Shown: in pieces, positions 28,255-29,578 of the stretch
Numbering within the stretch: position 1 is the stretch's first letter
How the letters are laid out: each line of letters starts with the position of its first letter
Virus record (IMG/VR): IMGVR_UViG_2740892233_000026
Length of the DNA stretch: 56,035 bases
Direction: 5' to 3' (one strand)
Source of the DNA: a virus
Taxonomy: Duplodnaviria > Heunggongvirae > Uroviricota > Caudoviricetes
Made by a program: the position numbers and the translations under genes
Notes under the pieces: generated by a model
Seen by the model: the letters and a program-made list of their open reading frames with translations, nothing else
Told to the model about the DNA's origin: nothing
The model's database searches: none

Positions 28255-28438
28255 CTCTTTCACTCCATCCGCGATGAACCATAAGAACGTCGTTGACGAT
28301 GGCGTGCATTTTCCCGTCTTTATCATCAACGTATTTTCTTACCGTGCCGCGACTACATTTCAGTCTGCGTGCTACTTCTGTCTGGTTTCCGTATGCTTCA
28401 ACGAGCATGTCTGGAATGGTTTTTACTGAGAACGTCAT
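28232..28438 (-). CDS. ninH: NinH
   Basis: 68-aa [71 protein letters not shown], matches remembered lambda NinH. Confidence 0.9.
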
Positions 28439-29037
28439 GCGGCCTCACTTCTGCTATTTCGCAGGTCTTTGAGTTTCTGTTGGTACTCTGCCTTGATCGC
28501 CTTGCACTCTTCGATAGTCCAGCGATGGCGGCTATGGTTTGATTCGATTTCGTCTACTGCTTCCTGCCCTATGCGGTTAATCAGTTCGACGCGATACGGA
28601 ACGAGATTTCCGCTTTTGTGCTGGTTGCACACCACGCATTGCTTGTGAATATTGCGTTCATCAAATCGGAGTTGAGGTGCCGCAGCAGTTGTCCGGTAAT
28701 GTCCGGCATCCCACTGAGCAGACGTGAGCGTTCCGCACGAGATACATGGTAAGTCGCGGTCTCTTTCTCTGATGAAGGCGTTTACGGCTTGTTGGGCTTG
28801 TTTAATCCAGTAACTGCGGGGCTTTAAGGCGAGTTTTCGAATCTTCAGTTTATCTTTCTGTTTCTGCTCCTCTCGTCGTAGTTTCTTCTCTGCTGCTTTT
28901 TCCGCTTTTTCGCGTTCTTTACTTCGTCGTTCGAGTGCTATCTTGGTTCCACAAATCTCATTACACCAATATTGATTTTGATATTTTGGTATAAACCATT
29001 CATTGCAACATTTACATTTCCTTCGATAGATTCGCAT
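28435..29037 (-). CDS. ninG: NinG (Rap) recombination endonuclease with replaced N-terminus
   Basis: ATG 29037 with AAAGGAG upstream; [93 protein letters not shown]... lambda NinG-like after residue ~10. Confidence 0.85.
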
Positions 29038-29578
29038 AAGTGCTCCTTTCGTTGCCGGAAAAATCACCGTAATACTTATCTCGGGCTTCTTCAGCAACTA
29101 GTACCGCTAACTCCAGATCATCAAAGCATCCGAAGTGTTTACTCTTGCCATGGAATCCTAGCCTAACATTCCATTTTTTCTGTCGTTTGTGCCAAGTAAC
29201 CCCTCTGCAACCTGATTTGCTATTCTTTCGGATCCTTATATTTCTTGAATTTTCTATTGGCAGGCATTCTCTTAAATTTTCTGGCCTATTGTCGGTCCTA
29301 ATTCCATTAACGTGGTCAATTTGACCAGCAGGCCAACGATTATGAGTTATGTAAAAAACTAAGACGTGAGTTTTATATCTACGCCCATCTATCATGATCA
29401 TTGAATAACCGTTGGAATCAAAAGTTCCAGCAACACTATTTAATGCTATCCTTCCCTGAGTGGGAACTTTCCATCTAAATACCCCGGTAGATTTATCGAA
29501 ACTTAGTAACTCAAATATCCTTTTAACAGTTAAATCTTCTCTTTTACGGTTACATCGTCTTCGCGCTGGTTTAGCCAT
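29012..29578 (-). CDS. HNH homing endonuclease (HNH_3 plus AP2 domain) inserted at the 5' end of ninG
   Basis: ATG 29578 with GGAGG upstream; MAKPARRRC (NinG-like N-terminus) then [55 protein letters not shown] (HNH), [49 protein letters not shown] (AP2-like). Confidence 0.8.

Follow-up and report, generated by a model that had tools for sequence, protein, structure and literature searches.

A putative HNH-AP2 homing endonuclease gene inserted in frame behind the translation start of lambda-type ninG in Escherichia coli prophages

The stretch of DNA analyzed here, hereafter the window, is the 56,035-nucleotide (nt) virus record IMGVR_UViG_2740892233_000026 from IMG/VR. In its nin region, upstream of Q, two overlapping genes lie on the minus strand: an open reading frame (ORF) encoding a putative HNH_3 + AP2 homing endonuclease (29012-29578, 188 amino acids plus stop) and a complete ninG (NinG/Rap) ORF (28435-29037, 200 amino acids plus stop). 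The nuclease gene is located between ninE/ninF, or an AT-rich moron, and ninG. Read in the direction of transcription, the locus begins with the native translation-initiation stub of ninG (29550-29591), which comprises the ribosome-binding site (RBS), the ATG (29578-29576), codons 1-9 encoding MAKPARRRC and 2 further nt, and now forms the 5' end of the nuclease ORF. The RBS core GGAGG (29592-29588) reaches one base past the stub edge. Next comes a cassette of 596 nt (28954-29549), made up of the nuclease-specific coding sequence, which starts at 29549 behind the nine ninG-derived residues, and a recoded replacement 5' end of ninG of 28 codons (28954-29037, 84 nt). The native lambda-type 3' part of ninG (28435-28953, 519 nt) follows and completes the ninG ORF. 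A new ninG RBS, AAGGAG (29043-29048), lies within the 3' end of the nuclease ORF, 5 nt before the new ATG (29037-29035), and the last ~12 nuclease codons span both of these elements. The source is a scaffolded draft with twenty 10-N gaps; the nearest to the cassette region is at 28065-28074 and none falls inside it.

Alignment with the insert-free ninG of phage lambda defined the exact insertion point. The stub (29591-29550) matches lambda (L001 1501-1542) at 40 of 42 nt, a similarity that reflects homology and not chance. At the left junction, similarity to lambda ends abruptly after ...CGATGTAA (29550/29549). The right junction lies at TGTGGAACC (28954/28953), where similarity returns equally abruptly at TGTGGAACCAAG (28953) and continues with 6 mismatches in the 519 nt to the ninG stop. 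In between, 596 nt (29549-28954) stand where lambda has 64 nt (NC_001416 42461-42524), just after ninG codon 9. At loci with ninF on the left, homology extends upstream from the stub into ninF. Within the cassette, the nuclease part has a GC content of 38.9% and the recoded ninG part one of 28.6%, versus 53.5% in the stub (over 29549-29591) and 49.3% in the ninG 3' part. This low GC content relative to the flanks points to a foreign origin of the cassette.

Since the nuclease ORF contains no in-frame ATG, GTG or TTG between codons 1 and 60, it depends on the captured ninG start. As judged from this arrangement, the nuclease would be translated from the RBS and ATG of ninG itself, with the first nine residues of NinG at its N-terminus. 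The stop codon of lambda ninF sits within ninG codons 3-4, so that insertion after codon 9 leaves ninF and the coupled ninF-ninG junction untouched, which gives a reason for the stub. At its 3' end the cassette carries a second RBS, an ATG and a rewritten ninG N-terminus, and ninG is therefore made full-length: the NinG domain (PF05766) is matched at 9.1e-85 (283.8 bits) over profile positions 5-192 of 193. The recoded 28 codons share only ~50% nt identity with lambda and keep the four Cys, WF..P and Q.WC residues. Among carrier loci the ninG ORF is intact in 48 of 52. These results agree with most of the original prediction, which had been made from the letters of the window. Its reading of MAKPARRRC as the NinG N-terminus was borne out by the lambda match over RBS, ATG and nine codons, and the 26-nt overlap that it described between the ninG start and the 3' end of the nuclease ORF is indeed present at 29012-29037. 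Its proposal that the insertion captured the ninG start while providing a replacement start is supported by the lack of an alternative nuclease start and by the full-length NinG domain. The duplication of the ninG N-terminus that it postulated holds for the RBS and nine codons but not for the other 19 recoded codons, which replace native sequence.

In E. coli genomes, in the phage collection and by protein search, the recoded ninG end turned up only together with the nuclease gene. No donor of the recoded N-terminus emerged: tblastn against the phage collection found no match above 61% identity in non-carriers, a search of 5.8 billion proteins, of limited sensitivity for a 40-amino-acid query, returned only fragments of the same allele, and species-representative genomes yielded one unrelated match from Planctomycetota. 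The N-termini of ninG fall into several discrete types (lambda, mEp213/933W and ES18; the mEp213 ninG is L004 1911-2516) that are spliced to similar 3' parts near a CGTK motif. With or without a nuclease gene, ninG therefore has a mosaic boundary at its 5' end.

We then turned to the nuclease protein. In Pfam, HNH_3 (PF13392) was matched at residues 68-107 above the curated cut-off (4.2e-11, 42.7 bits vs 24.8), in agreement with the original prediction. The AP2 domain that it had also named was recovered from the predicted fold and from relatives exceeding the AP2 threshold, but not by Pfam on the window protein itself (1.8e-4, 22.2 bits, under the 33.3-bit cut-off). Its NUMOD-like label did not hold, as no NUMOD family matched even at E <= 1; in a 15-member family alignment, the stretch so labelled corresponds to the conserved N-terminal strands of the HNH_3 family. 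The AlphaFold model of the nuclease has a mean predicted local distance difference test (pLDDT) score of 87.8. Low confidence is confined to residues 1-10 and 170-188 (average pLDDT 65 at 171-180, below 50 at 180-188), which coincide with the borrowed N-terminus and with the tail over the new ninG start. The predicted AP2 fold consists of three strands and a helix (residues 127-173, pLDDT > 90); in Foldseek searches it superposed on AtERF1 (1gcc) with a root-mean-square deviation of 1.3 Å over 51 columns, and also on the AP2 domains of WRI1 and TEM1. The N-terminal half matched I-HmuI (1u3e) over 109 columns at 18% identity, with probability 1.0 and a weak E-value of 0.012; for both halves the Foldseek E-values were weak and the probabilities 1.0. 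Model strands 86-89 and 102-105 and helix 107-113 agree with the beta-beta-alpha-metal motif of I-HmuI. The HNH motif is intact, with D88, H89, N101 and N110 invariant and N113 nearly so in the family alignment. The 14 aligned relatives, 31-42% identical to the window protein, start a few residues ahead of the conserved first helix, without the MAKPARRRC extension, and most of them stop ~12 residues sooner. The closest relatives overall are 44-47% identical. Taken together, domain matches and model indicate that the nuclease is in all likelihood the product of a free-standing homing endonuclease gene of the known HNH_3 + AP2 family. A role as terminase-associated HNH packaging factor was considered and rejected, as the gene lies in the nin region and not beside the terminase and portal genes at the cos end.

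Across 5,426 complete E. coli genomes, we found the cassette at 571 places in 538 genomes, always chromosomal, at least 99% identical, and always annotated as "HNH endonuclease" next to "recombination protein NinG". The cassette thereby explains why an HNH endonuclease is annotated again and again in ~10% of complete E. coli genomes, O157:H7, O26, O103 and O111 Shiga-toxin strains among them. Proteins from Salmonella enterica also belong to the 90%-identity cluster of the nuclease. Lambda-type ninG 3' ends are present at 2,440 places in 1,169 E. coli genomes; per genome, the median number of lambda-type ninG copies is 2 and the maximum 8. An intact lambda-type ninF-ninG junction, that is, an empty site, occurs in at least 834 of the genomes, and the MAKPARRRC segment with its RBS, present in these insert-free alleles as in lambda, is ancestral ninG sequence. 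Of the two outcomes that would have contradicted the original prediction, a non-ancestral MAKPARRRC segment and an inactivated HNH motif, neither was observed. These data bear on three ways in which the arrangement could be misread. The cassette-bearing form could be ancestral, with lambda-type ninG derived from it by deletion; however, lambda-type 5' ends are widespread, diverse and of the same GC content as the rest of ninG, in contrast to the AT-rich, nearly invariant cassette, and a deletion would need to recreate a coherent lambda-type N-terminus. The N-terminal similarity could be coincidental, yet the stub, RBS included, agrees with lambda at 40 of its 42 nt. Finally, an assembly artefact would have to recur in 538 complete genomes, and the region in the window is free of gaps. 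We regard this set of explanations as very improbable.

Among 57 carrier loci in IMG/VR, two main left contexts were observed. The first, of the window type, is a ~2.8-kb AT-rich region with a 617-codon ORF on the opposite strand; its boundary with the stub is at position -13. In the second, a lambda-like ninF precedes the stub, and similarity to the window likewise starts at -13. Overall, the cassette had at least three different contexts on its left and several on its right. In O157:H7 the first context is truncated by IS30. In E. coli PK8241 (L003, NZ_CP080139 669602-672058), with ninF on the left, the nuclease ORF and the recoded ninG start are separated precisely by an IS3-family element, which changes the C-terminal tail of the nuclease and parts ninG from the new RBS context. 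Across the 5,426 genomes, what follows the window-type moron flank is invariably the cassette and in no case an empty ninG, and this context therefore cannot serve as a filled/empty pair.

The AT-rich block of the window (29592-32372, ~2.8 kb, 27-40% GC) occupies the place of ninF between ninE and the stub and meets lambda-type sequence exactly 13 nt before the ATG. Its 617-codon ORF (30060-31913, plus strand) is annotated by PGAP as hypothetical and has no Pfam match. Between this ORF and the nuclease gene lies a hexanucleotide tandem repeat (29773-29825, AAATAG x 8.8, 97% matches) that generates spurious LFLFLF and ISISIS ORFs. Elsewhere in the window, many of the 10-N gaps are flanked by repeated sequence on both sides, for example in the ninI phosphatase ORF (27475-28329) around 28065-28074; these repeats are an assembly artefact and not a biological duplication.

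The ninF context did provide a filled/empty pair. The IMG/VR prophage L052 is a lambda nin region carrying exactly the 596-for-64 substitution, so that the same precise site is empty in lambda and filled in L052. To the left of the substitution the two are 99.3% identical across 1,529 nt, and to its right 98.6% across 897 nt. On the left flank, 10 of the 11 single-nucleotide polymorphisms (SNPs) lie within 210 nt of the junction, and 3 of these junction-near markers are common to nearly all ninF-type carriers; on the right flank no clear gradient is apparent. The SNP cluster looks like a short co-conversion tract, although ordinary recombination could give the same pattern.

The diversity of the cassette differs strongly from that of its surroundings. 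Over 52 loci, the nuclease part diverged from the window by a mean of 0.27% and the recoded part by 0.11%, versus 4.1% for the adjoining ninG 3' part, making the cassette ~15 times less diverse than the latter. Polymorphism among carriers begins within a few bases of the right junction (positions 629, 633, ...). The pattern shows a young cassette set in old, diverse flanks.

Overall, we propose that an HNH_3 + AP2 homing endonuclease gene invaded lambda-type ninG in frame after codon 9, and we consider active homing the most likely mechanism, a reading we hold with somewhat more confidence than doubt. According to this proposal, the delayed-early nin transcript would yield the nuclease during lytic growth, and the nuclease would nick or cut cassette-free ninG at or near the insertion point, within the ~64 nt that are replaced. 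Recombinational repair from a cassette-bearing genome would then copy the cassette in; the native stub, plus ninF where present, would provide homology on the left, and the 3' part of ninG would do so on the right. Were the duplicate perfect, the right junction would again hold the empty-site target, which would explain why the ninG end is recoded: the rewritten end would avoid an intact target there and render the carrier immune. From the recoding of the duplicated and replaced target region, we infer that the carrier allele resists cleavage. The rewriting should also curb loss of the cassette through recombination between repeats.

Several observations weigh against this proposal, and most of them favor a rival reading, that of a passive or decaying passenger that entered ninG once, through homing or an illegitimate event, whose nuclease is now inactive or irrelevant, and which spread by lambdoid mosaicism and clonal expansion of Shiga-toxin E. 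coli. The window-type left flank, for which no empty site was found, accounts for 512 of the 538 carrier genomes. With one left flank so dominant, much of the 10% prevalence may be clonal or due to hitch-hiking with a few prophage lineages of Shiga-toxin strains, which have been sequenced heavily. Isolated phages seldom have the cassette: a search with the 1.6-kb ninG region matched 425 phage records, of which only the Stx1 phages SH2026Stx1 and AU6Stx1 (4 records, 2 phages) carry it. In O157:H7 strain NCCP 15739, a carrier ninG (L069, at 1.23 Mb, with an IS30 remnant upstream) resides in the same chromosome as an unconverted one (L070, at 3.84 Mb), a cassette-free lambda-type ninF-ninG with 1 SNP in the 64-nt region. 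Since both prophages are degraded and their nin region is presumably silent, this coexistence is weak evidence against activity. Single copies with a frameshift, N101S or P83T are a few signs of decay. Moreover, low cassette diversity is not by itself proof of drive, as exchange of the flanks, but not of the cassette, with the large pool of cassette-free ninG would have the same effect. On the other hand, only 2 of 58 copies lack an intact full-length nuclease ORF, one through a frameshift and one through the IS3-interrupted 3' tail in PK8241. The catalytic residues are conserved and the two most common polymorphisms among the 58 copies are synonymous. The diversity of left and right contexts, the Salmonella members of the protein cluster and the short tract of apparent conversion in the lambda background of L052 likewise argue for movement. 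Weighing both sides, we consider the passenger explanation unlikely, though it deserves to be taken seriously.

A further alternative is that the nuclease has been domesticated or weaponized and mainly serves its phage, either by cutting the ninG region of competing lambdoid phages in co-infection or co-induction (marker exclusion) or as an AP2-based DNA-binding regulator, its own spread being secondary. With the copy numbers per E. coli genome given above, encounters between carriers and non-carriers would be common, and co-option of homing endonuclease domains in phage conflicts is documented (PMC10448857). However, the sequence offers no distinction from ordinary homing, whose biochemistry is identical, and a self-immunizing recoded duplicate and a conversion tract are what homing predicts. 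We consider such a role improbable.

Having characterized the ninG cassette, we aimed to determine whether relatives of the nuclease occupy other host genes in a similar manner. A profile-based locus search used a 5-member alignment, and 69 loci encoding relatives 32-45% identical to the window protein were taken for flank comparison. A duplication scan compared the flanks of the nuclease core in every reading frame, with permutations as the null (score of 49 at the 99th percentile). The clearest case was L143 (2306-3027), where the nuclease, a 35% identical relative, starts with MTDTPTAE and the downstream 73-codon gene with MTDTPTVE. The nuclease gene is present in 11 of 80 loci encoding this host gene, and the filled loci include nuclease versions only 60% identical to that of L143. 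Empty sites read AAAGGAGAAAGACATGACTGATACACCAACTGCGGAA/GAA... (for example L158, L165 and L200, around 1440-1550). At filled sites the RBS, ATG and 8 codons of the host gene are nt-identical to those of empty sites and are fused in frame to the nuclease, after which a second copy, AAAGGAGAAAGAACATGACAGACACACCGACAGTAGAA, whose changes fall mostly on the third base of codons, leads into the remainder of the host gene. Judging from these alignments, the L143 group has the ninG architecture in an unrelated gene, an independent recurrence of the design that we count in favor of the homing reading.

Two other loci presented variants of this design. L064 (3015-4561) is a mirror image, in which the nuclease ORF closes with a duplicate of the final 20-21 codons of the gene upstream; the copies agree at 46 of 75 nt, most differences are synonymous, and AT content is higher in the upstream copy. 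At L140 (2340-2990), ~70 nt of an overlapping gene junction, consisting of the last 23 codons of an upstream 507-amino-acid ORF and the start of the next gene, are duplicated on either side of an HNH-AP2 gene with an identical 18-nt core. L110, L129, L148 and L149 were also flagged in the scan and were dismissed as low-complexity, high-GC frames. The match at L134 looks like a repeat of the nuclease C-terminus. The closest relatives of the window protein do not lie beside ninG: P0004 is found in a T7-like module and L063 after a tail-fiber-like gene, while the loci of P0006 and P0007 were uninformative. The gene for P0004, the closest non-identical relative (44%), directly follows a T7-type endonuclease I gene (L066 1033-1927). 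Endonuclease I, like NinG/Rap, is a junction-resolving enzyme, and the adjacency may be a coincidence.

These cases hint at a general way of living in coding sequence without intron or intein, which the HNH-AP2 lineage may share at chances that we put a little short of even: in-frame insertion within the first few codons of a gene or where two genes adjoin tightly, takeover of the host RBS and start, and carriage of a target duplicate that is recoded. Start capture would then have arisen twice independently, in the ninG cassette and in the L143 group, with L064 and L140 as end-duplication variants. The recoded duplicate would do three jobs, namely restore the host gene, prevent self-cleavage at the junction and block repeat-mediated loss.

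Free-standing homing endonuclease genes are usually described as intergenic, and insertions into coding sequence as needing a splicing element or splitting the host protein. The ninG locus shows a third solution, in which the element borrows the start of the host gene and brings a recoded spare. Since lambda itself has the empty site, cleavage, immunity and homing frequency are directly measurable, and if the enzyme is active, the recoded segment points to the location of its target. In the nin region of Stx prophages, the cassette is also a marker of a recombination junction. In a literature search of incomplete coverage, we found no paper on the ninG insert, on the gene of SH2026Stx1 or AU6Stx1, or on start capture combined with a recoded target copy. 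Within that coverage, the insertion design is undescribed; the enzyme family is known, and the gene is common and already annotated.

The HNH-AP2 homing endonucleases form a recognized family (PMC10448857, citing Magnani et al. 2004). Like the window nuclease, described members, including the "IPA-HNH" genes of vibriophage ICP1, combine an N-terminal HNH with a C-terminal AP2 domain and are small phage ORFs variably present between related genomes (PMC10448857). None of these described members is located in ninG, and even the closest relatives of the window protein are the distant ones noted above. The best structural match of the nuclease half, I-HmuI of Bacillus phage SPO1 (PDB 1u3e), is also an HNH homing endonuclease, but it is intron-encoded and carries DNA-binding modules other than AP2. 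HNH genes hidden out of frame within a phage methylase have been reported as well (PMC11855218). The nearest precedent for an in-frame fusion in a P22/lambda-like phage is gene 31 of phage epsilon34, in which the N-terminus of EaE, a resident early gene product, is fused to an HNH homing endonuclease (PMC2629481). In contrast to the ninG cassette, that enzyme belongs to another HNH lineage, with related Lactobacillus phage enzymes, the host gene is a different one, and the one-sentence report describes neither a restored gene nor a recoded duplicate.

The closest parallels in mechanism are the free-standing Seg and Mob proteins of T4, known for "intronless homing" (PMC2988022). As in the ninG cassette, no intron or intein is involved, and the homing proposed here would share with them cleavage of the endonuclease-less allele, recombinational repair, co-conversion of flanks and protection of the carrier by differences in the target (PMC2988022). 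However, seg and mob genes are intergenic and their products cut hundreds to thousands of bp away, whereas the ninG cassette lies inside a host coding sequence and uses the host start; its putative target would span the insertion point, as for intron-encoded enzymes. Finally, mobE in nrdA of Aeh1 and mobA in the T4 topoisomerase gene are, like the ninG cassette, free-standing HNH genes that lie within the coding region of a host gene and involve no self-splicing element. Each divides its host protein into two polypeptides, which have to reassemble (PMC2988022), whereas the ninG cassette brings a replacement end that would leave NinG in one piece.

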